Assembly: GCA_039194995.1 (NCBI GenBank)
Contig: JBCCVR010000004.1
Coordinates: forward strand, 18,883-82,882
Reading direction: 5' to 3'
DNA from: Cyanobacteria bacterium P01_E01_bin.42
GTDB taxonomy: Bacteria; Cyanobacteriota; Cyanobacteriia; Cyanobacteriales; Spirulinaceae
DNA: 64,000 nucleotides
The notes under the pieces were generated by a model, which worked only from the letters and a program-made list of their open reading frames with translations, made no database searches and was not told the origin of the DNA. Below, one piece after another: positions 691-49,267 of this stretch (position 1 is its first letter; each line of letters starts with the position of its first letter). Made by a program: the position numbers and the translations under genes.

Positions 691-1683
691 ATGTCCTTAC
701 AGGCTGAAATCCTAGAAAAGAGTTTTGAGAACATCAAGCCCCAAGCCAATGAATTCGTAAACAGTTTTTATGAAAACCTCTTTTCAGCCAATCCAGAAGC
801 CAAGCCTTTATTTGGTCACACAGATATGGCTGCTCAGAAGAAAAAACTACTCGGCTCTCTCGTTTTAGTTGTCGAAAACCTGCGCAAGCCTGACGTACTG
901 AGCGATGCACTCAAAGGCTTAGGTGCAAGACACGTAAAGTATGGGGCATTACCCGAACATTATCCTCTTGTCGGTAGCGCTCTATTAACAACTTTCGAGC
1001 AATATTTAGGCGAGGCTTGGACGGAAGAAGTCAGACAAGCATGGGTCGAAGCCTATGGTGCAATTACCGAATTAATGCTTGACGGAGCCGATTATTCCGC
1101 CAAAGAAGTCATCTTAGATTCCTCCTCTGAAGAGTCTCCATTAGCTGCTGAATTACTCGAAACTAGCTTTGAGAAAATCAAACCCCAAGCCGATGAATTC
1201 GTAAACAGTTTCTACGCTAATCTCTTTACTGCCAATCCAGAAGCAAAACCTTTGTTTAGCCATACGGATATGGCCGGGCAAAAGAAAAAGCTCCTCGCTT
1301 CTCTGGTTTTAGTTGTCGAAAATGTACGCAAGCCAGATGTATTAACAGAATCCTTAAAAGGATTGGGATCAAGACACGTTAAATACGGTGCATTGCCAGA
1401 ACATTACCCGCTTGTGGGTAACGCGCTTTTAGCAACTTTCGAGCAATATTTGGGCATGGATTGGACAGAAGAAGTCAAACAAGCATGGGTGAAAGCCTAT
1501 GGGGTTATTACCGAAATTATGCTGTCAGGAGCCGATTATTCAGCCGAGGAGGTCGCCCTAAAAAAGCCTACTCTCCCCCCTCAATCCCAATCTTTTATTA
1601 TTGAAAATGAGATTAATTTGGGTTTGTTTGTCGGAATTTTTGTGGGGGCAGGAGTTCTTGTTTCTTTGATGCTATTGCTGTAA
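691..1683 (+). CDS. tandem (two-domain) 3/3 single-domain-type globin with C-terminal transmembrane anchor
   Basis: Two about 140 aa repeats each carry FY(E/A)NLF..NPEAKPLF..H..QKKKL..LKGLG(A/S)RHVKYGALPEHYPLVG. These align with Vitreoscilla-type bacterial haemoglobin (Tyr B10, Gln E7, proximal His F8). The C-terminal hydrophobic stretch LGLFVGIFVGAGVLVSLMLLL and a GGAGG RBS are present. Confidence 0.8.
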   Translation: MSLQAEILEKSFENIKPQANEFVNSFYENLFSANPEAKPLFGHTDMAAQKKKLLGSLVLVVENLRKPDVLSDALKGLGARHVKYGALPEHYPLVGSALLTTFEQYLGEAWTEEVRQAWVEAYGAITELMLDGADYSAKEVILDSSSEESPLAAELLETSFEKIKPQADEFVNSFYANLFTANPEAKPLFSHTDMAGQKKKLLASLVLVVENVRKPDVLTESLKGLGSRHVKYGALPEHYPLVGNALLATFEQYLGMDWTEEVKQAWVKAYGVITEIMLSGADYSAEEVALKKPTLPPQSQSFIIENEINLGLFVGIFVGAGVLVSLMLLL

Positions 1684-1693
1684 TTTTGGAAAG

Positions 1694-2353
1694 ATGGCAA
1701 ATCCTGTTCGTCGGGCTTTTAAACCCAATCAAATATTTCAATCGAAATTTGCCATTCTTGGAATTATCGTGCTGCTCGTTGTTTGGTTTTCCGTTGCTTT
1801 TGTGGTGGATCGGCGCACCATCTTTCTTCCTGGAAAGACTTCTGTGGGTCACGTTCTTTTCGAGACATCTTGCAGTTCCTGTCACGAAGGATTTAAACCC
1901 GTGACGAATGAAACTTGCTTGCGCTGTCACGAGGCAGAAATGGCAGAAGATGCTCACGGTGCGAAGAAATTTCGAGATCCTCGGTGGGCGGAATTATTAA
2001 CCCGCGTTGACGTGCTAACTTGTACGGCTTGTCATGCGGAACACGTGCATATTTTCGCTCGCGGCGTTCATCTCAAGCCGGATCTGTGCATGGCCTGTCA
2101 TGAAGACATTATTACAGGAGAACTGGCGAGTCACGATGGTTTTGCACCCGATGGTTGTTGGACGGCTGGTTGTCATAATTTCCACGATCATCGCTCGATT
2201 TCTACGGGATTTTTGCGGCAGAACATGGATGCACCACCATTGTTACCCGTGCCGGAGGTTTTCCCCTTGTCGAGACCCGATCGCTCGGGCGAACCGCCAA
2301 AACCTGACTTGAATCGGGAATTTTTGCAGGCAAAAACGGGGAGGACAGAATGA
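1694..2353 (+). CDS. membrane-anchored multihaem cytochrome c, NapC/NirT/NrfH-like (4 CXXCH plus a possible CX4CH site)
   Basis: N-terminal TM helix (FAILGIIVLLVVWFSVAFVV) is followed by CSSCH, CLRCH, CTACH and CMACH, plus CWTAGCH. The 219 aa size and architecture are typical of quinol-dehydrogenase tetrahaem cytochromes. The start lies 11 bp after the globin stop. Confidence 0.75.
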   Translation: MANPVRRAFKPNQIFQSKFAILGIIVLLVVWFSVAFVVDRRTIFLPGKTSVGHVLFETSCSSCHEGFKPVTNETCLRCHEAEMAEDAHGAKKFRDPRWAELLTRVDVLTCTACHAEHVHIFARGVHLKPDLCMACHEDIITGELASHDGFAPDGCWTAGCHNFHDHRSISTGFLRQNMDAPPLLPVPEVFPLSRPDRSGEPPKPDLNREFLQAKTGRTE

Positions 2354-3156
2354 GCGATCGCGCAACTAAACTCTTGATTTTTGTTCTTTCGATCGGGTTT
2401 TTCTGGGGGTCTTTGTTGTCTTTTCCCGCGATCGCTCGGGCCGATGGCTTTAGCGCCCAACATATCGAGGAAATTAACAGTTTGTGGCAAAAAAGCGCCC
2501 ATGCTTTTGCCGATATTAATTGCTCGAGCTGCCATCTAGAAGCGGAAACCAAACAATTAATTATTGCCCCCAAGTTTGAAAGCTGCCAAACCTGTCACGA
2601 ACGACAAGTCGAGACATTTCTATTCGGAAAACATGGCGTTCGCTCTCTTGAAGGTCTTTCTCCATTAACCCCAGCAATGGCACATTTACCGATGAAAGAA
2701 ACGGCAAGCGATCGCCAGATGAATTGCAATACCTGTCACGACGTTCATTCGGTCGATACTTTTACCGCTTCGGTAGATTCTTGTTTGAGTTGTCATAACG
2801 ATACCCATTCCTTGAATTATGTCAAGTCAAAACACGGTTTATTATTTGCCGAAGCGAAATTGTTACCTGCCCCCACAGCCGATTTAGTCAGTTGTGCGAC
2901 TTGTCACCTACCCCGGCAACAAGTGGAAGGCACAAAAACTGTTTTTGTCAACCACAACAATACTTACAATTTATTGCCTCGCGATCGCATGGTCAAAGAT
3001 GTTTGCATGAATTGTCACGGTCTGGAATATTCCTACAATAGTATCTTTGATGATGAGTTGGTGGAAGCGAATTTTAATGCACCCCCGACGCAATATTTAG
3101 AGACCTTTGATATGGTAAAAGACCTCGAGAAAAAGCGATCGGGAACGGGGAATTAA
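2350..3156 (+). CDS. periplasmic hexahaem cytochrome c
   Basis: Signal peptide, then six CXXCH motifs (CSSCH, CQTCH, CNTCH, CLSCH, CATCH, CMNCH) in about 235 mature residues. Start and stop overlap the previous gene (ATGA), indicating translational coupling. Confidence 0.8.
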   Translation: MSDRATKLLIFVLSIGFFWGSLLSFPAIARADGFSAQHIEEINSLWQKSAHAFADINCSSCHLEAETKQLIIAPKFESCQTCHERQVETFLFGKHGVRSLEGLSPLTPAMAHLPMKETASDRQMNCNTCHDVHSVDTFTASVDSCLSCHNDTHSLNYVKSKHGLLFAEAKLLPAPTADLVSCATCHLPRQQVEGTKTVFVNHNNTYNLLPRDRMVKDVCMNCHGLEYSYNSIFDDELVEANFNAPPTQYLETFDMVKDLEKKRSGTGN

Positions 3157-3215
3157 AACTAGAGCAATTCGGAAGGGTACGAGTTAGTTTGTTTATTTGC
3201 AGAGGAGAACACCAA

Positions 3216-3860
3216 ATGTTAGCTTTTTTGAAAAAATTGAAAGCAAGAACCATTGCGTTAATGACTTTAGCCGTCGCAATTTGTTTCATCGCGATCGCTT
3301 GTGGAGGTGGCTCCGCACCGCAAGCAGGAGGTGATGGGATTAATCCGGAAGTTGTTGTCGATTACATTCACACGGTATTATTAGCTGATAGAACAGCTTA
3401 TACCAAGCACGTTGTCAATCGTTTTGAAACCCTAGAAGGAAAACCCAATGAAAAGGGTGTCGTCCCCGCAGAAGCGACAGAAGGATGGAAAGAAACCGGG
3501 GGAATTCCCCTACCTGCACAAATGTTCCGTTTGGGTGCAGAAATTGCCGCCGAAGAAGGAACATTTACTTACGGTTTAATTTCTCCGTGGAATATTAATG
3601 ATTCCCAAGCCCCGAAAACAGACTTTGAAAAAGAAGCAATGGCGAAAGTCATCGAAACGGGAGAACCTTATAAAAATTATCAAGAAATTGGCGGTCAAAA
3701 ATACTTCTCCGCCGTCTATCCCGATAACGCCGTTGCAGAGGCTTGTATTACTTGCCATAATACCCATCCCGTCCACCTAGAACGCTATCCCGACAAACAG
3801 TTTGAAATGGGAGAAGTCATGGGGGGAGTCGTGATCAACTTGCCGTTAGAAGGCGCTTAG
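3216..3860 (+). CDS. c-type haem lipoprotein with a single C-terminal CXXCH, Tll0287-like (PAS-like haem c protein family)
   Basis: AGGAG RBS 8 nt upstream of the ATG at 3216. Lipoprotein signal with lipobox IAIAC. Single CITCH near the C-terminus. Size and architecture resemble the cyanobacterial Tll0287/DUF3365-type haem c proteins. The ORF-track start at 3189 was replaced by the RBS-supported start. Confidence 0.55.
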   Translation: MLAFLKKLKARTIALMTLAVAICFIAIACGGGSAPQAGGDGINPEVVVDYIHTVLLADRTAYTKHVVNRFETLEGKPNEKGVVPAEATEGWKETGGIPLPAQMFRLGAEIAAEEGTFTYGLISPWNINDSQAPKTDFEKEAMAKVIETGEPYKNYQEIGGQKYFSAVYPDNAVAEACITCHNTHPVHLERYPDKQFEMGEVMGGVVINLPLEGA

Positions 3861-3897
3861 TTTAAGCTAGTTCGGTAATCATGTTCGGACATTCTCT

Positions 3898-3921
3898 AGG
3901 GACGTTGTTGGCAACGTCCCT
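3898..3921 (+). other. perfect 10-bp GC-rich stem-loop (AGGGACGTTG-ttgg-CAACGTCCCT) between operon genes; possible attenuator or RNA-processing/stability element
   Basis: Inverted repeat seen directly. No U-tract follows, so it is not a canonical intrinsic terminator. Confidence 0.3.
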
Positions 3922-3969
3922 GAATAGTAATCGCGATCGCCAATGGAATTAAGATTTTAAAATTGTACA

Positions 3970-4584
3970 ATGAAACCAACATTTACTACTTTAATTATTT
4001 TGACGTTCTTGGTCGCGTTACTACTCGTCCCTTTTGTTGTCAGTCCTTACTATTTGGTTTATCTCCGCGATCGCGCTTTTGAAATTCATCTCATTTTACA
4101 AGGAGAGATTTACAAGCAAATCACGGGATACTTTTCTTTACTGTTTGTGCTTGTAGAAATGCTGATCGTTGCTCGCAAGCGAGGGCGGACTTGGCTAGTA
4201 AAAATAAAACTTCCCGGATCGTTACAAATTTGGCGGCGCTGGCACATTTTTCTCGGCGTTGCTCTTTTGGGTACAACTTTAATTCATACGATCGGATCGC
4301 GGGGTTTAAATTTTAATGCAGTGTTTCTCTGGTTTTTTTTCGGGGTCACACTGTCGGCTTTAGTGGGGGCAGTTGCCGAAACGGGAGTATTAGAGTCTTC
4401 TCAACGTTATTTCGGTTGGGTTCCTCACGATACAAAAGAAGTTCATAAGAGTCGTTTTCTCATCTCTAAAGCCGCACTGATTCGCAATTTACGTGCTTGG
4501 TGGCTCAATACTCATATTTTCCTCGTTACGGCTTTTTGTGTCATGCTTGTTTTTCATATTTTTCTAGCTTACTATTATCAATAA
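3970..4584 (+). CDS. integral membrane protein (about 4 TM) with conserved His in TM helices; putative b-type haem/ferric-reductase-like membrane component
   Basis: Hydrophobicity pattern, with His at helix ends (WHIFLGVALLGTTLIHTIGS, NTHIFL, FHIFL). No named family recognised with certainty. Confidence 0.45.
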   Translation: MKPTFTTLIILTFLVALLLVPFVVSPYYLVYLRDRAFEIHLILQGEIYKQITGYFSLLFVLVEMLIVARKRGRTWLVKIKLPGSLQIWRRWHIFLGVALLGTTLIHTIGSRGLNFNAVFLWFFFGVTLSALVGAVAETGVLESSQRYFGWVPHDTKEVHKSRFLISKAALIRNLRAWWLNTHIFLVTAFCVMLVFHIFLAYYYQ

Positions 4585-4616
4585 TAGTTGTTTTTTGTTT
4601 GTTATTTGTTTTTAAA

Positions 4617-5114
4617 ATGTTAGAATTCTCTAATACCGATCGCTCATTACTCGTTACTCATTGCCGAAGGATTGCGATCGCATTGTTACTCTGTTTTTGT
4701 TTAAATAGTTTTTTGTTGGTTTCCGAAGCGAAAGCCGGACTTTTTTCGGGTTCTTCTTTAGCGGGTTTGGTGACAATGAAAAAAATGGCGGCGGAGTCGG
4801 TTGCTTATGATACAGCCGCGAACAGCGATCGCCCGATGGTTCTCGAATTTTATGCGAATTGGTGTACCACCTGTCAGGGAATGGCACCAACTATGGAAAA
4901 ATTAGAGGCGGAATTTCGAGAAAATGTCGATTTAGTCATGCTCGACATTGACGATCCCCAATGGGTTAATATGATTCAAGAATATGGCGTAACTGGAGTT
5001 CCTCAGTTTATCTTTTTAGATCGCGATCGTCATCTCCAAAAAACTTTGGTCGGGAAAGTTCCGCGATCGATTATGACTCGCTATTTTGCAACCTTATCAG
5101 ATCCCGAATTCTAA
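4617..5114 (+). CDS. secreted thioredoxin-like thiol:disulfide oxidoreductase (WCTTC active site), TlpA/ResA-like
   Basis: Signal-like N-terminus, then YANWCTTCQ and a thioredoxin fold pattern (VPQFIFLD). Start re-assigned to the internal ATG at 4617 to avoid overlap with the preceding gene. Confidence 0.7.
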   Translation: MLEFSNTDRSLLVTHCRRIAIALLLCFCLNSFLLVSEAKAGLFSGSSLAGLVTMKKMAAESVAYDTAANSDRPMVLEFYANWCTTCQGMAPTMEKLEAEFRENVDLVMLDIDDPQWVNMIQEYGVTGVPQFIFLDRDRHLQKTLVGKVPRSIMTRYFATLSDPEF

Positions 5115-23092: not shown

Positions 23093-23653
23093 ATGGTTGT
23101 CACTCCAATTTCCACGCACCGATGGACGGTGGAACAATACCACCAAATGATAGAAACGGGGATTTTAACCCCTCGCGATCGCGTAGAACTGATTCGAGGA
23201 GAAATTGTCGATGTGAGTCCGCAAAAGCCCGTTCATGCGGTTTTAATTTGTTTGTTAGCAGATTTATTGAGAGAGCGGTTGCAAGGCAATGCTTATGTGC
23301 GATCGCAACTTCCCATTACCCTGTCAAACTCAGAACCCAGTCCCGATCTGGCGATCGTGCGGGGGACGGCGAGAAGTTATCTGACTCAACATCCCCTACC
23401 AGACGATATTTTCTGGCTCATTGAAGTCTCAAATACAACCCTCGCTTTCGATTTAGGAGCAAAAGCAGAAGTTTACGCGATCGCGGGAATCCCGGAATAC
23501 TGGGTTTTCGATTGTCAACAAAATCGTCTGCACCTGTTTCGAAACCCGCGATCGGGTCAATATCAACAAGAAATGATTATTTCAGGAGGCGAAAATATCT
23601 CTCCCATCGCCTTTCCACATCTCACTTTAACCATCGAGGAGTTTTTGATTTGA
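23093..23653 (+). CDS. Uma2-family (DUF820) putative restriction-endonuclease-like protein
   Basis: W(T)VEQYHQM...G..TP...ELI.GEIV signature of the Uma2 family that is abundant in cyanobacteria. Confidence 0.8.
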   Translation: MVVTPISTHRWTVEQYHQMIETGILTPRDRVELIRGEIVDVSPQKPVHAVLICLLADLLRERLQGNAYVRSQLPITLSNSEPSPDLAIVRGTARSYLTQHPLPDDIFWLIEVSNTTLAFDLGAKAEVYAIAGIPEYWVFDCQQNRLHLFRNPRSGQYQQEMIISGGENISPIAFPHLTLTIEEFLI

Positions 23654-24064
23654 ATTAAGATATCAGGAAAGTGAAGGCTGCAATGCGAGCATCTTTGTAT
23701 CCCATTTTTTCCATTCTGAAGCCTCAAAGGGATGAGCCGCCAAACTACACGCCTTCCAACAGCCTTGTACTGGGACGTTTAATTGACGGCAGTTTCCACC
23801 ACGTCTTCCTTGAGGGGCATAAAAAATACAACGGCGACAAGTTGATGTTAAAGATTTTTCTGAGTCCATGATATTTTATAGTAGTTTTGCGAACCCGATG
23901 CTTACAAACATTTTGCCATCTGTGCGGTAAGGCGACAGCGATCGCGAGTTTGACTCGAGAGTGCTTTCGTGCAGATATTGAAGTGATGCAGATAACCCGA
24001 TCGATGCGATCGCGTGCAGGAGATAGAATAAAATTAACTGTCAGTCGGATAAGAAATAGCGATC

Positions 24065-24481
24065 GTGGCAAAAGACATTTTTCATCAACAAGTTAAAAGT
24101 GCTTTAATCAAGGACGGGTGGACGATTACTCACGACCCGCTAACCCTCCGCATCAGTGAAGCCGTGAAATTGCAGATCGATTTAGCCGCAGAAAATGCGA
24201 TCGCAGCAGAACGAGATTCTGAAAAAATTGCAGTAGAAATTAAGAGTTTTATCGCAGATTCAGATATTAGTGCTTTTCATACCGCACTGGGGCAATATCT
24301 CAACTATTATCAAGCCCTTGAAGAACAAGAGCCAGATCGTCTCCTGTATTTAGCCATTCCTGTGGAGACTTATCGAGATTTTTTTCAACTTCCTTTTATT
24401 CAACGAGCGATCGCTCGTCACCCAATGAATCTCATTATTTATAATCCTAGATTGGAGGAGATCGAAGAATGGATCGCCTAG
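24065..24481 (+). CDS. xisH: XisH family protein
   Basis: MAKDIFHQQVK.ALIKDGWTIT..PL N-terminus typical of XisH; overlaps xisI by 13 bp. Confidence 0.8.
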   Translation: MAKDIFHQQVKSALIKDGWTITHDPLTLRISEAVKLQIDLAAENAIAAERDSEKIAVEIKSFIADSDISAFHTALGQYLNYYQALEEQEPDRLLYLAIPVETYRDFFQLPFIQRAIARHPMNLIIYNPRLEEIEEWIA

Positions 24482-24807
24482 AACAATATCGACAATTTAT
24501 CGAGCAAATTTTAACAGAACACGCTCAGATTTCCACAAGCACGGATACAGATGTAAAACCGCAACTGATTTTCGATCGCGAACGAGACCATTATCAGTTA
24601 TCTTTTGTAGGTTGGCAGGGAGATAAACGAGTATTTGGACCCGTGATGCACTTTGATATTGAAAATGGCAAAATTTGGGTGCAATATAACGGAACGGAAG
24701 AGGCTGTTGCTGAAAGATTGGTAGAAATGGGCGTACCCTCTTCAGATATCGTTCTGGGCTTCCATTCTGCTTTTAAACGTCAATTTACACGTTATGCAGT
24801 GGATTGA
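24469..24807 (+). CDS. xisI: XisI family protein
   Basis: MDRLEQYRQFIEQIL...ENGKIWVQYNGTEE typical of XisI. Confidence 0.8.
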   Translation: MDRLEQYRQFIEQILTEHAQISTSTDTDVKPQLIFDRERDHYQLSFVGWQGDKRVFGPVMHFDIENGKIWVQYNGTEEAVAERLVEMGVPSSDIVLGFHSAFKRQFTRYAVD

Positions 24808-27569: not shown

Positions 27570-28004
27570 TTAGTTGAGAGCAACTTTGACAACTTTATTC
27601 TTTTCTTCTTCTGCTTTGGGTAGGGTGAGATGAAGAATGCCATTGGTGTATTCAGCAGTCACGCTGGTGTTTTGAATGCGGACGGGAAGGGGAATGACGC
27701 GCTGAAAACTACCGTAATAGAATTCGCTGCGTTTTACGCCACCTTCTTCCACTTTCTTTTCCGCCTTGCGTTCGCCACTGATAGAAACGGCTTCGGCTGT
27801 TGCTTGAATCTCGATATCTTTAGCATCGAGACCGGGAACTTCGAGTTTGAGTAGAACGGCTTCTGAAGTTTCTTCAAGTTCCGCAGCCGGAACAAAGTTT
27901 ACATTCATGCGATCGGGGACAATTCGCGCATCGTCAAAAATGCGATTCATTTCCCGATGCAAGCGATCGATTTCTTGGAAGGGTTGAAAACGAATCAGGT
28001 TCAT
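27570..28004 (-). CDS. hspA: Hsp20/alpha-crystallin family small heat-shock protein
   Basis: Alpha-crystallin-domain pattern (AVLLKLEVPGLDAKDIEIQ...GILHLTLPK). Confidence 0.85.
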   Translation of the reverse strand: MNLIRFQPFQEIDRLHREMNRIFDDARIVPDRMNVNFVPAAELEETSEAVLLKLEVPGLDAKDIEIQATAEAVSISGERKAEKKVEEGGVKRSEFYYGSFQRVIPLPVRIQNTSVTAEYTNGILHLTLPKAEEEKNKVVKVALN

Positions 28005-28466
28005 AATATTAATCTCCGAAGTTGTCTTTTCTATTCTTTCAGGCGTTTACTTTGCTTGCCTTTGGTTACTACTTTAGCGAGTGAAAACTGTTAAGTCAGT
28101 GTGGTTTTAACGAATTAAAAATTCAAGGTTTCCGAACCTATTTCGTTGATTTTCGGTTTACCGAACTAGGTTTTTTGGTTTTGCGATCGCTGTATTCAGG
28201 TATTAGCAAGATGACAAATTTATCGAATCTATAAAACCCTGAAATTATTCCAAACTCTAATGTTGGGTTAATGGCGATCGGGAGTTTGACAAAAAATGAG
28301 TCCTATGGGTTTGGGAACTATTGAATCGGGTATCAAACCAACTGAAAGGCGTGATAACATATCTGGGGCGCAATTGCAGGTTGATAATGTTCCTCTTATT
28401 CTTCCAGTAGGCTGCGCTTCCCTCAATGGTACTGTTTCCTAGGGGTGTTTTTATACGTTAAAAATC

Positions 28467-30992
28467 ATGACATCTAACCGTCAAAAAAACTCGCGCCGGA
28501 ATTTTCTCAAGGATATGGCCGTAGGTGCGGCTGCTGTAACAGGGGCAGATCTCCTCAAAAATCAGAAGCCCGTTGAGGCTTCCAGCGATGGTGTTTATCC
28601 AGCTAAGCCCGTCGATAATGCCCAACCCCAAGAATTTGATTTTACCCAGCAGTCCGGGGCATTGCAGCCCGATCGCATTGTCAATAGTGCCTGTCAGTTC
28701 TGTAATAGTTTGTGTCGCTTAAAAGTTCACCTTAAAGATGGGCGCATCATCGACGTGACCGGGGAATCCGAGGATCCGGTGCAGGCGGGGGGATTTTGCG
28801 TTAAAGGTCCCATGATGACCCAATTGGTTTACAATCGCTTCCGTCTGACTCGTCCCCTTAAACGAGTCGGGGGGGCAAAGGGGTCTTCAGACTCCAAGTT
28901 TGAGCCGATTAGTTGGGATGAAGCCTTAGAAACGATCGCCCGCAAATTTTTAGCCCTGCGAGATACCGGGGAGGCTCGGGCGATCGCCAACAAAACCTCC
29001 GGTCGCCTGCCACGAGGGACGGGATCTCTGGTGGGGCGCTACTTTACCTTATTGGGCAGTCCCAACAACACGGATGTGGGGCCAGTCTGTAACGATGCGG
29101 GGGCCAATGCCTTAACCTGGACTTTTGGCATGGGCAATTTTACCAATGGCTACGGTGTCGATCGCAATATCGGTCAAGAAGACTTAGGATCGGCCAAATG
29201 TTTTCTATTTCTAGGCACCAATCAGGCAGAAACCCATCCGGTCACGTTTGCCTATCTCCTCAGAAGTCGTGCGAAAACCAATGCAAAGTTAATCGTCATC
29301 GATCCCCGCTTAACCCCCACAGGAGCCGAGGCGGATGAGTGGCTTGCCCCCAAACCCCATACGGATTTAGCCTTGGTTCTGGGGATGCTCCATCACATTG
29401 TCAGCAATAACCTGTACGATGCGGAATTCGTACGGCAATGGGTGCTAGGCTTTGAAGAACTCAAGGCGCATCTATTGGAAAACGAGTATACCCCCGAATG
29501 GGCGGCAACCATTGCCGACGTACCCGCCGATCGCATCCGCGATATTGCCACGACCTATGCCACCGCCAAACCCGCCGCTATCTTCTGCAATGCGGGCATT
29601 TCCCACCAGTTGGGGGCATTCGATACCTACCGCGCTCTGTCCTTCCTCGCGGCGATTACGGGCAATATCGGCGTTTCTGGTGGGGGTTGCAACTTCATGC
29701 ACAACACTTGGCCTGGCGGACTGAACTTACCTCCCATGACCGCCACTGTACCCGAAAAACCCGTCGCGTTGCCCGTGGGCCCGGATTACTTTGCCGAGTC
29801 GATTTTGACTGAGAAACCTTATGGGTTGAAGGCGATCGTGACCCAAGGAAACCCCCTCGTTGCCTGCGCCAATAACAAAAAAGTGCAAACCGCCTATCAG
29901 CAACTCGACTTTTATGTTTACACCGGATTGTTTATGGAAGAGTCGGCCTATTATGCCGATATTATTCTCCCCGTGACCAGTGGCTTTGAGATGGAAACGG
30001 TCTATATGCGCCGGGACGATCGCGCCATTCGCTGGCAAAAGCAAGTAGTTTCCCCAGTAGGGGAGTCCAAACCCGATTGGCACATCTGGATCGATCTGGC
30101 TCATGCAACGGCGAAACTGGATCGGCAAAACCCCCCAGAATACTGGACGGAGCATTTTCCCCTCGCTTGGAAAGATTATGGCAACCTGTGGGCGACTTTC
30201 GTGGAAAATACTCCCAGTATGGGAGGCATGACCCAAGCGCGCATGGAACGGAGTGCAGAACCCTTACAATATCCTTGCCCCTCCCCCGATCGCCCCGCAG
30301 TCAGTACCCTCTATCTCGATCATCTCTCTTGGTATCAAGCGGTGGAGTCCCTCGATCCCAATCAAAAGGGCAAACGGTTTTTAACCCCCAGTGGCAAAGT
30401 CGAGATTTACACCGCCGAACTCGAAGCGCAGTTAAGCACGGTCGGTCACAGTGCCTTACCTCGTTTTTACACCCATCCGGAGGTCACGGGGGGACACCCT
30501 TCTATCGAATATAGTCGCGAATTGGTGCAAAATCCCGTCAATCCTCAAGCCCTAACCCTTAAAGCCAGCCTCGGCAAACCCGCATCGGAAGTCATACACG
30601 AAGAATATCCCCTCATGGGCATGACAGGCCGGCCAAGTGTGGTACATTTTCACTCCGTGACCCAGTGGACTTATACGGGCAAGCAAATGAATGGCATCCG
30701 GCTGATTCAAATTCACCCCGAAACCGCCCGCGCCGCAGGGATTAATCAAGGCGATCGCATCAGGGTGGAGAGCCCGAGGGGAGCGATCGAGGGCACGGCT
30801 TTGCTCTGGGAACAGATTCGCAAGGACACGATTTTTATCCCGAACTGGTTCGGTCCCAAACAAGAAGTCGCTTTAGAGTTGGGCACCCCTCTCTACGAAC
30901 CAGCTAGCGTGTTAATTGACGATCGCTACTACGATAATCTATCCGGTCAGCAAGCCTACAAATGCTTTGCCTGCCGCGTCGAAAAAGTCTAA
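28467..30992 (+). CDS. Tat-exported molybdopterin (Mo-bisPGD) oxidoreductase, Nap/Nas-like catalytic subunit
   Basis: Twin-arginine signal SRRNFLKDMAVGAAAVTGA. N-terminal [4Fe-4S] motif CQFCNSLC...C. LGTNQAETHP motif. Candidate Mo-ligand Cys in PVCNDAGANALTWTFGMG, resembling NapA/NarB. C-terminal MoCo-dinucleotide-binding region. Confidence 0.85.
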   Translation: MTSNRQKNSRRNFLKDMAVGAAAVTGADLLKNQKPVEASSDGVYPAKPVDNAQPQEFDFTQQSGALQPDRIVNSACQFCNSLCRLKVHLKDGRIIDVTGESEDPVQAGGFCVKGPMMTQLVYNRFRLTRPLKRVGGAKGSSDSKFEPISWDEALETIARKFLALRDTGEARAIANKTSGRLPRGTGSLVGRYFTLLGSPNNTDVGPVCNDAGANALTWTFGMGNFTNGYGVDRNIGQEDLGSAKCFLFLGTNQAETHPVTFAYLLRSRAKTNAKLIVIDPRLTPTGAEADEWLAPKPHTDLALVLGMLHHIVSNNLYDAEFVRQWVLGFEELKAHLLENEYTPEWAATIADVPADRIRDIATTYATAKPAAIFCNAGISHQLGAFDTYRALSFLAAITGNIGVSGGGCNFMHNTWPGGLNLPPMTATVPEKPVALPVGPDYFAESILTEKPYGLKAIVTQGNPLVACANNKKVQTAYQQLDFYVYTGLFMEESAYYADIILPVTSGFEMETVYMRRDDRAIRWQKQVVSPVGESKPDWHIWIDLAHATAKLDRQNPPEYWTEHFPLAWKDYGNLWATFVENTPSMGGMTQARMERSAEPLQYPCPSPDRPAVSTLYLDHLSWYQAVESLDPNQKGKRFLTPSGKVEIYTAELEAQLSTVGHSALPRFYTHPEVTGGHPSIEYSRELVQNPVNPQALTLKASLGKPASEVIHEEYPLMGMTGRPSVVHFHSVTQWTYTGKQMNGIRLIQIHPETARAAGINQGDRIRVESPRGAIEGTALLWEQIRKDTIFIPNWFGPKQEVALELGTPLYEPASVLIDDRYYDNLSGQQAYKCFACRVEKV

Positions 30993-46880: not shown

Positions 46881-48023
46881 ATGAAAAGACGCTGCTTCTT
46901 CCAACTGGCAACGGCAATATCAGGCTCGATTCTCTTGGGCAAAAATCTGGTTGGCTGCACGGCAAATTCCCAAATAGAAAATAACAGCACTGCGACTATG
47001 GCTGCGAATTCTTCTTTTTGCATGCCCGATGAAGCTGCACCCCATTTGTGTACTTGGATGGCATTTCGTGCCAACCCAGATGTTTATACTTTTGGACGCG
47101 AACACGTTTCAGCAGTCCAAGATACTATCGCTCGAGTTGCCAAAACAATCGTTCAATACGAACCCGTGAAAATGTTAGTTTGCGAGGAAGATTATGACAT
47201 TGCGCGGCGGAAATGTGGTTCTGATGTCGAGTCGATCGTGCAACCGATTGACGATCTGTGGATGCGAGATACAGGACCCATTTTTGTGGTGAACGAACAA
47301 AGGGAAAAGGCAGCCGTTGACTTTAATTTTAATGGCTGGGGAAACAAAGCGTACCACGAGAATGATGCAGAAACTGCCCCATTTGTTGCCAAGAAAGCGG
47401 GAGTACCTCTCATTACTACAAAACTCACCTGCGAGGGCGGTGGGATTGAGGTAGATGGTCGCGGTACGGCAATTATAACGGAAAGCTGTATTATTAACGA
47501 CAATCGCAATCCGGGCTGGAGTAAAATCGATTGCGAGCGAGAATTAAAAGCATTATTGGGACTGCAGAAAATCATTTGGTTGCCCGGTATTCGCGGGGTC
47601 GATATTACCGACGGACATACGGATTTTTATGCCCGTTTTACCCGTCCCGGAGTTGTTGTTGCCGGGTACGATCCCAATCCCGAATCTCCCGACCATCTCA
47701 TAACAAAAAAGCACCTTGAAATCTTAGAGTCCCAAACCGATGCTGATGGAAACGATCTTGAAGTTGTCGTCTTAGAAGGGCCGAGTAGAATCCGTGAAGG
47801 ATATGATTGGGATGATTTTTTTGCAGCCGGATATATTAACTTTTACGTCCTCAATGGTGCTGTTCTGCTGCCCGAATTTGGCGATCGCTATTGCGATCGC
47901 AATGCCAAAGAAATTTTAGAAGGACTATTCCCCGATCGCGACATTATTCAACTCAATATCGATGAAATTGCGGCCGAAGGCGGTGGCATTCACTGCATGA
48001 CGCAACAAGAACCTTTAGTTTGA
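46881..48023 (+). CDS. Tat/lipoprotein-exported agmatine deiminase (Porphyromonas-type peptidyl-arginine deiminase) family protein, copy 1
   Basis: MKRRCFFQLATA...LVGC signal. C-terminal catalytic GGGIHCMTQQEP, WMRDTGP, TDGHTDF motifs. Start moved to the Met that begins the twin-arginine signal. Confidence 0.75.
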   Translation: MKRRCFFQLATAISGSILLGKNLVGCTANSQIENNSTATMAANSSFCMPDEAAPHLCTWMAFRANPDVYTFGREHVSAVQDTIARVAKTIVQYEPVKMLVCEEDYDIARRKCGSDVESIVQPIDDLWMRDTGPIFVVNEQREKAAVDFNFNGWGNKAYHENDAETAPFVAKKAGVPLITTKLTCEGGGIEVDGRGTAIITESCIINDNRNPGWSKIDCERELKALLGLQKIIWLPGIRGVDITDGHTDFYARFTRPGVVVAGYDPNPESPDHLITKKHLEILESQTDADGNDLEVVVLEGPSRIREGYDWDDFFAAGYINFYVLNGAVLLPEFGDRYCDRNAKEILEGLFPDRDIIQLNIDEIAAEGGGIHCMTQQEPLV

Positions 48024-48136
48024 AAACAAAATCTGGCAAGATTCGGAGTCGATCTCCCCATCAAACTGAGAAAAGGGTAGAATAAAGCCAGTAAAAACGT
48101 GGCGATATTTCTCCGATCGAATAATACTCCAATATT

Positions 48137-49267
48137 ATGAAAAGACGCTCTTTTCTGCAATTGACAGCAGCAACATCCGGATCGATTCTCTTGGGCAAAA
48201 ATCTGGTTGGCTGCGCGGCAACTCCTCAAGTCGAAAATCATACTGCTGCTATGGCTGCAAACTCTTCTTTTTTCATGCCCGACGAAGGCGAACCCCATTT
48301 GTGTACTTGGATGGCATTTAGTGCCAGTCCGGATATTTGGGGACGCGAATATGCCGAGGGAGTCCAAGATAATCTCGCTGAAATTGCCAACACCATCGCC
48401 CGCTACGAACTCGTGAAAATGTTAGTTCGCGAGGAAGATTACGATATTGCCCGGCGGAAATGCGCCTCAGAAGTCGAGTTAATCATTCAACCCATTGACG
48501 ATTTGTGGATGCGAGATACTGGCCCCGTTTTTGTCGTCAACGAACAGGGAGAAAAAGCAGGCGTTGACTTTAATTTTAACGGTTGGGGAAACAAGCAAAG
48601 GCACGAGCTCGATGCAGAAGTCGCCCAGTTTGTCGCCCGAGAAGCGGGAGTTCCCGTCATTAACACAGAACTCGTCTTTGAAGGAGGAGGAATTGAGGTA
48701 GACGGTCGCGGCACGGCAATTGTAACGGAAAGTTGTATTATCAATGACAATCGCAATCCGGGCTGGAGTAAAGCCGATTGCGAAAAAGAATTAAAAGCAC
48801 TGCTGGGACTGCGGAAAATCGTTTGGTTACCCGGTATTCGTGGGGCTGACATTACTGACGGACATACGGATTTTTACGCCCGTTTTGCCCGCCCCGGGGT
48901 TGTCCTTGCCGCATACGATCCCGATCCCGAATCTCCCGACCATTCAGTGACGAAAAAGCACCTTGAAATCTTAGAAACCCAAACCGATGCAGATGGAAAC
49001 GAACTCGAAGTTGTCGTGTTAGAGGCACCGACAAGAATTCGCGAGGGGTATAGTTGGGATGATTTTGCAGCCGGATATATTAATTTTTACGTCTGCAACG
49101 GTGCCGTGCTGCTGCCCGAATTTGGCGATCGCAATGCCGATCGCAATGCTAAAGAAGCTCTAGAGAGATTGTTTGACGATCGCGACATCATCCAACTCAA
49201 TATTGACGAAATAGCGGCAGGCGGCGGCGGGATTCACTGTACGACCCAACAAGAACCTTTAGTTTAA
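48137..49267 (+). CDS. Tat/lipoprotein-exported agmatine deiminase/PAD family protein, copy 2 (tandem paralogue)
   Basis: MKRRSFLQLTAA...LVGC signal. GGGIHCTTQQEP. Highly similar to the preceding gene. Confidence 0.8.
   Translation: MKRRSFLQLTAATSGSILLGKNLVGCAATPQVENHTAAMAANSSFFMPDEGEPHLCTWMAFSASPDIWGREYAEGVQDNLAEIANTIARYELVKMLVREEDYDIARRKCASEVELIIQPIDDLWMRDTGPVFVVNEQGEKAGVDFNFNGWGNKQRHELDAEVAQFVAREAGVPVINTELVFEGGGIEVDGRGTAIVTESCIINDNRNPGWSKADCEKELKALLGLRKIVWLPGIRGADITDGHTDFYARFARPGVVLAAYDPDPESPDHSVTKKHLEILETQTDADGNELEVVVLEAPTRIREGYSWDDFAAGYINFYVCNGAVLLPEFGDRNADRNAKEALERLFDDRDIIQLNIDEIAAGGGGIHCTTQQEPLV

Follow-up and report, generated by a model that had tools for sequence, protein, structure and literature searches.

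The 64,000-nucleotide stretch of Cyanobacteria bacterium P01_E01_bin.42 analysed here (contig JBCCVR010000004.1, positions 18,883 to 82,882 of the forward strand; hereafter the window) harbours a stand-alone gene for an oxidoreductase of the Mo/W-bis-pyranopterin guanine dinucleotide (Mo/W-bisPGD) superfamily. The gene itself is an ordinary member of its family, and the interest lies in a lead at family level: in several phyla, relatives of this enzyme are encoded within arsenic operons. It is quite probable that the family is involved in arsenic metabolism, and we favour, with a rough probability of 0.45, the reading that the enzyme is a single-subunit, exported oxidase converting arsenite, As(III), to arsenate, As(V), for which we infer substrate, direction, electron acceptor and compartment. 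The family as a whole is a partner-less, probably arsenic-active branch of the superfamily.

28467..30992, plus strand: gene for the stand-alone Mo-bisPGD oxidoreductase (841 aa), an intact, ATG-started open reading frame (ORF), stop codon included, with three Pfam domains, an identical database protein and an AlphaFold2 (AF2) model

The deduced protein is 100% identical to the database record 'molybdopterin-dependent oxidoreductase [Cyanobacteria bacterium P01_E01_bin.42]' (P0001).

Distribution of the family and its arsenic gene neighbourhoods

Members of the family share 64-80% identity across five or more phyla, namely Cyanobacteria, Verrucomicrobia, Planctomycetes, Acidobacteria and Actinobacteria, and a genome scan recovered relatives in at least 236 species genomes. 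The cyanobacterial members come from Nostocales, Microcystaceae-like metagenome-assembled genomes (MAGs), Chroococcidiopsis, Microcoleus and Thermosynechococcaceae, the numerous actinobacterial ones from Streptomyces, Kitasatospora, Amycolatopsis and Microbispora, and the others from Verrucomicrobia (Chthoniobacterales), Planctomycetes (Gemmataceae), Acidobacteria and Polyangia. When a library was clustered at 50% identity, the whole family fell into one cluster, its next relatives being 35-47% identical. Such identity across phyla, combined with the invariant active-site motifs described below, makes a single function likely for the family. The location of the gene is variable, with plasmid-borne copies in Nostoc C052 and Streptomyces NBC_01708.

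The ORFs flanking the molybdoenzyme (Mo) gene in 88 loci were clustered, and arsenic genes were mapped by tblastn and named with NCBIfam; the counts given here refer to 86 family loci (20 from Actinobacteria, 28 from Planctomycetes-Verrucomicrobia-Chlamydiae [PVC], Acidobacteria and Polyangia, and 38 from Cyanobacteria). Linkage to specific arsenic genes (arsC, arsM, arsS, arsH, acr3, bsnMN) was found at 32 of the 86 loci and in four different layouts, against a chance expectation that, by our own estimate, is about 1% for one ars gene per 20-kb window at a few copies per genome.

Linkage is strongest in Actinobacteria (18/20 loci), where two layouts occur. The first reads arsR-acr3-arsO-[Mo], with arsC and trxB upstream. 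In the second, 50-113 bp separate the Mo gene from downstream, co-directional homologues of bsnM and bsnN, encoding an EPSP-synthase-like arsenoenolpyruvate synthase and an iPGM-like mutase, respectively; pstS/pstC or PiT genes and arsR follow, and a phosphonopyruvate-decarboxylase homologue is found upstream. This second layout is of the arseno-organic (bisenarsan) cluster type, in which the first step, catalysed by BsnM, consumes As(V) (PMC4943196; PMC12159101); the searched portions of these two papers contain no mention of a molybdoenzyme.

Among the PVC, Acidobacteria and Polyangia loci, arsC or arsM was found at 8 of 28, often at less than 200 bp and on the same strand (for instance arsM-[Mo]-pstS and arsC-[Mo]), while a further seven have an adjacent ArsR-family gene and one has PiT only. 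In Cyanobacteria, 6 of 38 loci are arsenic-linked: Chroococcidiopsis has the order arsM (arsenosugar type, 583 bits)-[Mo]-arsS (419 bits), Thermosynechococcaceae have [Mo]-arsenosugar-associated peroxidase-like-arsS, and Microcoleus and 'Richelia' have [Mo]-arsR-pstS-MIP channel-arsH-arsC. In the family tree, these ars-linked cyanobacterial members are basal, and the query groups with the Microcystaceae-like MAGs beside Nostocales, in an unlinked subclade. Since linked members occupy the basal cyanobacterial branches and occur in all the other phyla, the arsenic linkage looks ancestral. The query is 72-75% identical to the ars-linked cyanobacterial members, the same identity as it has to the unlinked ones.

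The solitary state of the gene is a property of the whole family, because no gene for a Fer4_11 (B-type) subunit was found within 10 kb, and none for a c-type cytochrome within 5 kb, of any of the 86 family loci. A search for membrane-anchor partners near the family members likewise found none. The only neighbours containing CXXCH motifs were ArsS radical-SAM proteins, which were rejected as false positives. Neither a low-potential donor module of the NapC/NrfD type nor a quinol dehydrogenase is conserved near the family genes.

Two further kinds of neighbour were noted. At three verrucomicrobial loci (L045 1082-1876, L046 3895-4722 and L059 2355-3005), the Mo gene is preceded at 7-34 bp by a co-directional gene for a protein of ~220-275 aa; the protein has a signal peptide, ends in an aromatic residue, resembles an outer-membrane beta-barrel and matches no family, and it may be a candidate substrate porin. 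The GNAT genes beside the Nostoc copies were considered as arsinothricin-resistance ArsN and rejected, scoring 22-27 bits against cut-offs of 125-210.

Protein architecture and predicted structure

The following features were located in the gene product:

28467..28577, plus strand: predicted twin-arginine translocation (Tat) signal peptide, residues 1-37, with RR in the n-region, a weakly hydrophobic h-region and V-E-A37; the N-terminus is disordered in the AF2 model
28491..28511, plus strand: twin-arginine motif S9-R-R-N-F-L-K15, an exact match to the (S/T)RRxFLK consensus
28677..28835, plus strand: [4Fe-4S] domain, residues 71-123 (Pfam Molybdop_Fe4S4, E 3e-13), with ligands Cys76, Cys79, Cys83 and Cys111
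28842..30104, plus strand: Molybdopterin (PGD-binding) domains, residues 126-546 (Pfam PF00384, E 6e-52)
29076..29102, plus strand: Mo-ligand motif V204-G-P-V-C208-N-D-A-G212, with Cys208 as predicted Mo ligand
29676..29714, plus strand: family-invariant loop G405-G-G-C408-N-F-M-H412-N-T-W-P-G417, from the alignment with reference enzymes and the invariant columns of alignments A1 and A2
30621..30962, plus strand: Molydop_binding (domain IV) beta-barrel, residues 719-832 (Pfam PF01568, E 4e-17)
30963..30974, plus strand: C-terminal pair C833-F-A-C836, invariant in A1 and A2, partly kept in the sister clades and absent from the reference enzymes

The three Pfam matches score 177, 62.5 and 49.9 bits, all above the gathering scores, which places the protein in the Mo/W-bisPGD (dimethyl sulfoxide reductase [DMSOR]/MopB) superfamily. 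Judged from its motif, h-region and AxA-type site, the protein is predicted to be Tat-exported; a putative cleavage site after V-E-A37 (residues 35-37) was read from the sequence. In the full-length family members that were read, the N-terminal twin-arginine position is occupied by [ST]RRx[FL] or a close RR variant, in some followed by a lipobox. The iron-sulfur (FeS) motif, CX2CX3CX27C, aligns with those of the reference enzymes, and its four cysteines show little or no variation in alignments A1, A2 and A3. The sequence-only reading had described a stand-alone Mo-bisPGD enzyme with a Tat signal, a single [4Fe-4S] cluster and a cysteine ligand, and the ORF, Pfam, motif and alignment data bear this description out.

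In the alignment, Cys208 falls in the column of Sec140 of Escherichia coli FdhF and of the ligand cysteines of NapA, PhsA and ArxA. The surrounding DVGPVCND is invariant across the family (A1, A2), and its 'CND' signature also occurs in sister clade A but in none of the reference enzymes. The catalytic pair of formate dehydrogenase (FDH) is replaced: Asn209 follows the ligand cysteine and, because His412 occupies the column of FdhF Arg333, the FDH catalytic arginine is absent.

Five non-ligand cysteines are also family-invariant, at positions 374, 408, 604, 833 and 836 (nt 29586-29588, 29688-29690, 30276-30278 and 30963-30974). They include the C-terminal CxxC (YKCFACR) and Cys408 within the invariant GGGCNFMHNTWPG loop, and thiol pairs among them might bind As(III).

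The AF2 model built from an 83-sequence alignment has a DMSOR-type fold, with a predicted local distance difference test score (pLDDT) of 90.4 and a predicted template modelling score (pTM) of 0.90; an earlier 28-sequence alignment (70-80% identity) had given a pLDDT of 48.5 and was discarded. The best Foldseek matches of the model are formate dehydrogenases, monomeric Desulfovibrio desulfuricans NapA, FdhH and acetylene hydratase, with identities of 20-24%. TorA and MtsZ are also among the matches, ArrA ranks 36th, and none of the solved structures found in this way is a close relative.

Placement against characterised molybdoenzymes

None of the NCBIfam equivalog cut-offs was reached by the protein, all being missed by a factor of two or more:

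Fdh-alpha (TIGR01591): 316.8 bits against a cut-off of 666, the best-scoring curated model
PhsA/PsrA (NF012032): 288.3 bits against 694
NasC: 255.5 bits against 1100
ArrA: 166.3 bits against 1600
NapA (NF010055 and TIGR01706): 144.4 and 136.4 bits against 904 and 930
NasA: 119.1 bits against 1000
AioA (TIGR02693): 72.8 bits against 359

The reference set comprised E. coli napA and fdhF, phsA from an E. coli plasmid, arxA of Sulfuricella pSCD, a Curtobacterium assimilatory nitrate reductase gene, and DmsA-family and acetylene-hydratase-like genes. Identity to each of these references lies between 24.9 and 28.2% (E. coli NapA 24.9%, Curtobacterium nitrate reductase 26.0%, Sulfuricella ArxA 26.0%, E. 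coli PhsA 26.7%, FdhF 28%). A neighbour-joining tree of 50 sequences gave 100% bootstrap support to each of three nested groups, namely the query family, the family with sister clade A, and the family with sister clades A and B, and all reference enzymes (NapA, Nas, FdhF, PhsA, ArxA, DmsA and Ahy) fell outside this 100%-bootstrap clade.

No PhsB/PsrB- or PhsC/PsrC-type partner genes were found near the Mo gene, and neither a Rieske nor any other FeS partner appears among the identified window neighbours or the recurrent genes of related loci. Likewise, napD, napB and napC/G/H are absent from the window flanks and from the recurrent neighbours identified in the 86 related loci, and no nap, nar, nir or nitrate-transport genes occur among the identified neighbours in the window or in related loci. 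The protein belongs to no curated family. The label 'NapA/NarB-like', given to it in the sequence-only reading, is correct for architecture only: the NapA and Nas scores are far below their cut-offs, and in sequence identity the protein stands no nearer to NapA and Nas than to FdhF, PhsA, ArxA or the acetylene-hydratase-like protein. The distinction drawn there from cytoplasmic NarB does hold, given the Tat signal and the missed Nas cut-offs, and neither of the two refuting outcomes named there occurred: the phylogenetic placement leaves the protein outside any characterised clade, and its signal is of Tat type.

Sister clades

Clade A shares 36-47% identity with the query. It includes proteins from Thiolapillus (P0126), a Sulfuricella MAG (P0271), Nitrospinae (P0278) and Methylomirabilales (P0277), and its operons were read at the following loci:

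L089 1513-8731
L091 631-7504
L093 1196-11792
L095 1-14531
L096 3400-15006

The clade A operon consists of a ~75-aa Tat-exported ORF, the Mo subunit, a Fer4_11 subunit, a small ORF and a NarJ/TorD-type chaperone, and continues either with a CydA-like membrane protein and a cytochrome c or with multihaem, NapC/NirT-type and dihaem cytochromes. Directly upstream, several members have genes for a periplasmic binding protein, a histidine kinase and a sigma54 regulator. The best Protein Data Bank (PDB) match of the binding protein is AioX (E 9e-50), followed by ArrX (E 5e-29), with PtxB at E 1e-14, and ArxX of the Sulfuricella arx cluster shares 39% identity with it. In the Sulfuricella MAG, the clade A operon is followed by moaA, arsR, acr3 and arsP. 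These AioX/ArxX-like sensors and ars genes at the sister clades point, for the wider clade, to arsenic and to regulation of the arsenite-sensing type.

Clade A was considered as ArxA itself and this was rejected, since the ArrA model is not among its matches at E < 1e-40 and ArxA lies outside the clade; the ArxA of Sulfuricella pSCD is also not among the top plasmid matches of P0271. Clade A thus looks like a separate candidate respiratory arsenic enzyme. It resembles the query family in the Tat signal, the CND ligand motif and a similar C-terminus, but is multi-subunit and under an AioXSR-like system, whereas the query family has lost all partners.

A clade B member on a Pseudohalocynthiibacter plasmid (L007 8281-11208; 975 aa) has Fer4_11 fused at its N-terminus and no Tat motif. 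Its gene has a hybrid-cluster NAD(P)-dependent oxidoreductase gene as neighbour and Rieske-type ferredoxin genes a few kb away, and the protein appears to be a cytoplasmic, differently wired relative.

Proposed reaction and alternative explanations

In the reaction that we propose, the enzyme would be loaded with its cofactor in the cytoplasm and exported in folded form through the Tat pathway to the periplasm or thylakoid lumen. There, outside the cytoplasm, oxo-transfer at the Cys208-ligated Mo centre would convert arsenite to arsenate, and the two electrons would leave through the single [4Fe-4S] cluster (Cys76/79/83/111). They may be handed over directly, with no intervening subunit, as in monomeric Desulfovibrio NapA, to a soluble or surface acceptor, plausibly cytochrome c6 or plastocyanin in cyanobacteria. 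The resulting, less toxic arsenate would, in the relatives, either be taken up by Pst/PiT and used by bsnMN, or be reduced by ArsC and methylated by ArsM/ArsS.

Several points weigh against arsenite oxidation. No ars genes occur in the window, with none within 10 kb of the Mo gene, just as none was found within 10 kb in any of the ~30 Nostocales and Microcystaceae-like loci; the window protein is tied to arsenic through homology, and we assume that this unlinked copy has kept the family function. ArsR-family regulators and Pst/PiT transporters are not arsenic-specific, and the substrate of ArsM and ArsS is As(III), so that an external oxidase is not their obvious partner. Actinobacteria, to our knowledge, are without soluble c-type cytochromes. 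No residue-level match to the active sites of Arr/Arx or Aio was found, and association in gene neighbourhoods gives neither the reaction nor its direction.

The direction is the point on which the closest alternative turns. An enzyme that reduces As(V), MAs(V), DMAs(V) (mono- and dimethylated arsenicals) or trimethylarsine oxide, or one that oxidises exported MAs(III)/DMAs(III), would share the same arsenic context, and an organoarsenical substrate would suit the adjacent arsM/arsS, whose products methylate and adenosylate arsenic, and the arsH present in operons of the Microcoleus type. Enzymes of the Arr/Arx type are reversible, and the fold is near to those of S- and N-oxide reductases (TorA and MtsZ in the Foldseek list). 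We nevertheless regard this alternative as rather unlikely. An exported reductase needs a low-potential donor in the periplasm, and the absence of a conserved donor module, whether quinol dehydrogenase or cytochrome, near the gene favours oxidation. The Mo gene directly precedes the As(V)-consuming bsnMN and the Pst/PiT genes; as BsnM uses As(V), extracellular formation of As(V) followed by its uptake through Pst/PiT fits the bsn layout, whereas external As(V) reduction would oppose the pathway encoded directly downstream. The sister clades are paired with sensors most like AioX, the regulator of arsenite oxidase, with ArrX scoring lower, and the flow of electrons from As(III) to a high-potential carrier such as cytochrome c6 or plastocyanin would be downhill.

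It is quite unlikely, in our judgement, that in this cyanobacterium and in Nostocales the enzyme acts outside arsenic metabolism altogether, on a sulfur compound (thiosulfate, polysulfide, tetrathionate), on formate or on something else, with the arsenic contexts elsewhere being co-mobilised islands. Such an explanation would account for the absence of ars genes within 10 kb in the window and in ~30 Nostocales loci, and it accords with the top hidden Markov model scores (Fdh-alpha, 317 bits; PhsA, 288 bits), with formate dehydrogenases as the top structural matches and with the variable, in two strains plasmid-borne, location of the gene. Against it stand, however, the replacement of the FDH catalytic His and Arg by Asn209 and His412, the absence of PhsB/PhsC-type partners and family cut-offs that are all missed two-fold or more. 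The 72-75% identity to ars-linked cyanobacterial members and the invariant active site argue for a single function, and hitch-hiking is hard to square with four independent arsenic layouts and with the linkage seen in the sister clades. Extracellular oxidation of antimonite or phosphite, whose product or analogue would be handled by the Pst/PiT and ars genes, appears improbable. The AioX-type sensors of the sister clades have the PtxB/PhnD phosphite-/phosphonate-binding fold (PtxB at E 1e-14), PstS, PstC and PiT genes are frequent neighbours, and ars operons also respond to Sb(III); but the most specific recurrent neighbours (arsC, arsM, arsS, arsH, acr3, bsnMN) are arsenic-specific, and the sensor resembles AioX, ArxX and ArrX far more than it does PtxB.

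Highly improbable, finally, is a NapA/NarB-like periplasmic reductase for nitrate, chlorate or selenate, the substrates suggested in the sequence-only reading, perhaps fed by the multihaem cytochrome encoded 26 kb upstream. The Tat signal, the single [4Fe-4S] cluster and the Cys ligand, D. desulfuricans NapA as one of the best structural matches, and the transmembrane (TM)-anchored tetrahaem cytochrome at 1694..2353 are all compatible with it. NapA and NasC scores are, however, far under the cut-offs, identity is 25-26%, and the 100%-bootstrap clade excludes both enzymes. The neighbours identified include no nap, nar, nir or nitrate-transport genes, the cytochrome has no NapC/NirT Pfam match, and no cytochrome is linked to the Mo gene at the other loci. 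Nothing was found in support of these three substrates, and the family context points instead to arsenic, which that reading had not considered.

Likeness to known systems

In its working architecture the enzyme resembles monomeric Desulfovibrio NapA, and in its proposed role Aio and Arx. The D. desulfuricans NapA (PDB 2NAP, 2V45) is likewise a single Tat-exported chain with Mo-bisPGD, one N-terminal [4Fe-4S] cluster, a Cys ligand and no tightly bound NapB or FeS subunit, and superposes on the query model with TM-scores of 0.73 on the query and 0.85 on the target (root-mean-square deviation 3.7 Å). It differs in being only 23% identical and in having the ligand motif CMA where the query has CND, and the query lacks any nap or nitrate context.

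The Arx/Arr enzymes (ArxA of Sulfuricella denitrificans pSCD; ArrA of Shewanella ANA-3, PDB 6CZ7) share with the query Tat export, Mo-bisPGD, a [4Fe-4S] cluster and the Cys ligand. They interconvert As(III) and As(V), lie inside arsenic islands and are under XSR three-component regulation resembling the systems beside the query's sister clades. Arr/Arx always occur with a four-cluster FeS subunit B and usually with a membrane anchor C and a chaperone D (PMC6549141), whereas none of these subunits is encoded within 10 kb in the query family. Aio (AioAB) performs what is proposed for the query, periplasmic oxidation of As(III) to As(V) with electrons passed to a soluble cytochrome c or cupredoxin, and both Aio and the query family are found in arsenic islands beside pst genes, with an AioX-like sensor at the query's sister clades. 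AioA contains a [3Fe-4S] cluster, has no protein ligand to Mo and depends on an obligatory Rieske subunit; the query, unlike AioA, has four FeS cysteines and Cys208, with no Rieske gene nearby. FdhF/FdhA have the same domain order and the same FeS motif as the query and are its best PDB matches in sequence and structure, but FdhF-type enzymes are cytoplasmic and the query bears a Tat signal. The candidate for 'alternative arsenite oxidation' in Thioalkalivibrio is a cytoplasmic SoeABC-like enzyme and not a member of the query family (PMC6620896).

Genomic setting in the window

The immediate surroundings of the Mo gene are formed by hsp20 and dnaK, divergently transcribed, on the upstream side, and by convergent kaiC, kaiB and kaiA, then a hybrid histidine kinase gene, on the downstream side:

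27570..28004, minus strand: hsp20, the divergent upstream neighbour of the Mo gene
28005..28466, no strand: divergent intergenic region of 462 bp between hsp20 (minus) and the Mo gene (plus), presumed from the sequence read to be the promoter region

No partner subunit gene (FeS, cytochrome or anchor) adjoins the Mo gene in the window, and these flanks agree with the sequence-only reading on this point. The kai genes and the name of the database record confirm that the DNA is cyanobacterial. No inverted repeat and no regulator site was found in the 462-bp region, and promoter-like matches there stay at the level of shuffled sequence. In other genomes the Mo gene was not found to be syntenic with kaiABC, dnaK or hsp20, except for hsp20 in two Verrucomicrobia loci, where tandem Hsp20 genes lie at L050 7711-8127 and ~1.5-2.0 kb upstream in L059. 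Arsenite is a classic heat-shock inducer, and the proximity of Hsp20 genes to the Mo gene could be coincidence.

At 41450-44287 on the plus strand, 10.4 kb downstream of the Mo gene, there is a fused PstC-PstA permease of 643 aa, above both equivalog cut-offs, and a PstB-like ATPase that scores 330 bits against a cut-off of 343; no PstS gene is adjacent. Four unrelated genes separate the Mo gene from these pst genes, and in other phyla pst genes accompany the Mo gene. Upstream of dnaK (23093-24807, plus strand), a Uma2-family endonuclease gene is followed by a XisH/XisI pair. Mastigocladopsis (L001) and a contig binned as Planctomycetota (L002) also have Uma2 genes close to the Mo gene, and this puts the binning of the L002 contig in question. 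Just past the kai-associated histidine kinase gene, the window encodes a homologue of the eukaryotic Major Vault Protein (MVP) of 861 aa (37619-40204, plus strand) with Vault repeats (E 6e-63), the MVP shoulder (E 2e-53) and Vault_2/3/4 domains. Two tandem paralogues of the Porphyromonas-type peptidyl-arginine/agmatine deiminase (PAD_porph; E 8e-103 and 1e-109) are encoded at 46704-49267 on the plus strand.

A co-directional cluster of haem-protein genes occupies positions 691-5114 of the window:

691-1683, plus strand: globin-domain protein
1694-2353, plus strand: TM-anchored cytochrome with four CXXCH motifs
2350-3156, plus strand: c3/MtrC-like cytochrome with six CXXCH motifs
3189-3860, plus strand: Tll0287-like haem protein with one CXXCH motif
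3970-4584, plus strand: ORF without assignment
4497-5114, plus strand: thioredoxin-like protein

Multihaem cytochromes are unusual in cyanobacteria. The second gene corresponds to the NapC/NrfH-like cytochrome that the sequence-only reading had placed 25 kb from the Mo gene. Its product does have an N-terminal TM helix and four CXXCH motifs, as claimed, but both the homology to NapC and the link to the Mo gene lack support: it does not match Pfam NapC/NirT (Cytochrom_NNT), and pairwise comparison with E. coli NapC gives only a marginal match (E 8e-4 over 58 aa). It was rejected on these grounds as a demonstrated partner of the Mo enzyme. The moa/moe and tat genes, whose presence had been proposed as another check, do not occur in the 64-kb window.

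Meaning for arsenic biology

Microbial arsenite oxidation is currently ascribed to Aio and Arx only (2026 review, PMC13262295). In cyanobacterial mats, arsenite-driven anoxygenic photosynthesis has been described for which the "enzymatic basis remains unresolved" and no aioAB was detected in cyanobacteria (bioRxiv 10.1101/2024.04.27.591451), and the Geitlerinema genome paper reports photosynthetic arsenite oxidation without known genes (PMC5061849). In the open-access literature, we found no description of the query family, nor of a molybdoenzyme in bsn, ars or arsenosugar clusters.

At its furthest extension, the proposal would make the family a third lineage of arsenic-active molybdoenzymes beside Aio and Arr/Arx, stripped of its partners, which in cyanobacteria would be the missing arsenite oxidase, passing As(III) electrons through cytochrome c6 or plastocyanin to photosystem I, with sister clade A as the respiratory version. 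We hold this to be a speculative and, as a whole, unlikely scheme; if true, it would account for the arsenite-driven anoxygenic photosynthesis and the light-dependent As(III) oxidation of cyanobacteria that have neither aioAB nor arxA.

Should the arsenic reading fail, the enzymes would still constitute an abundant orphan family, present in at least 236 species genomes. If true, arsenite oxidation by this family would explain the supply of arsenate to bisenarsan-type and arsenosugar pathways, and would offer a minimal model of partner-free electron exit from a Mo-bisPGD enzyme. It would also add a new marker gene for arsenic cycling to surveys of soils and mats, which at present count aioA, arxA and arrA only. 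A conserved, exported, single-subunit molybdoenzyme in the arsenic operons of several phyla is, in any case, a concrete and clonable arsenite-oxidase candidate for cyanobacteria.

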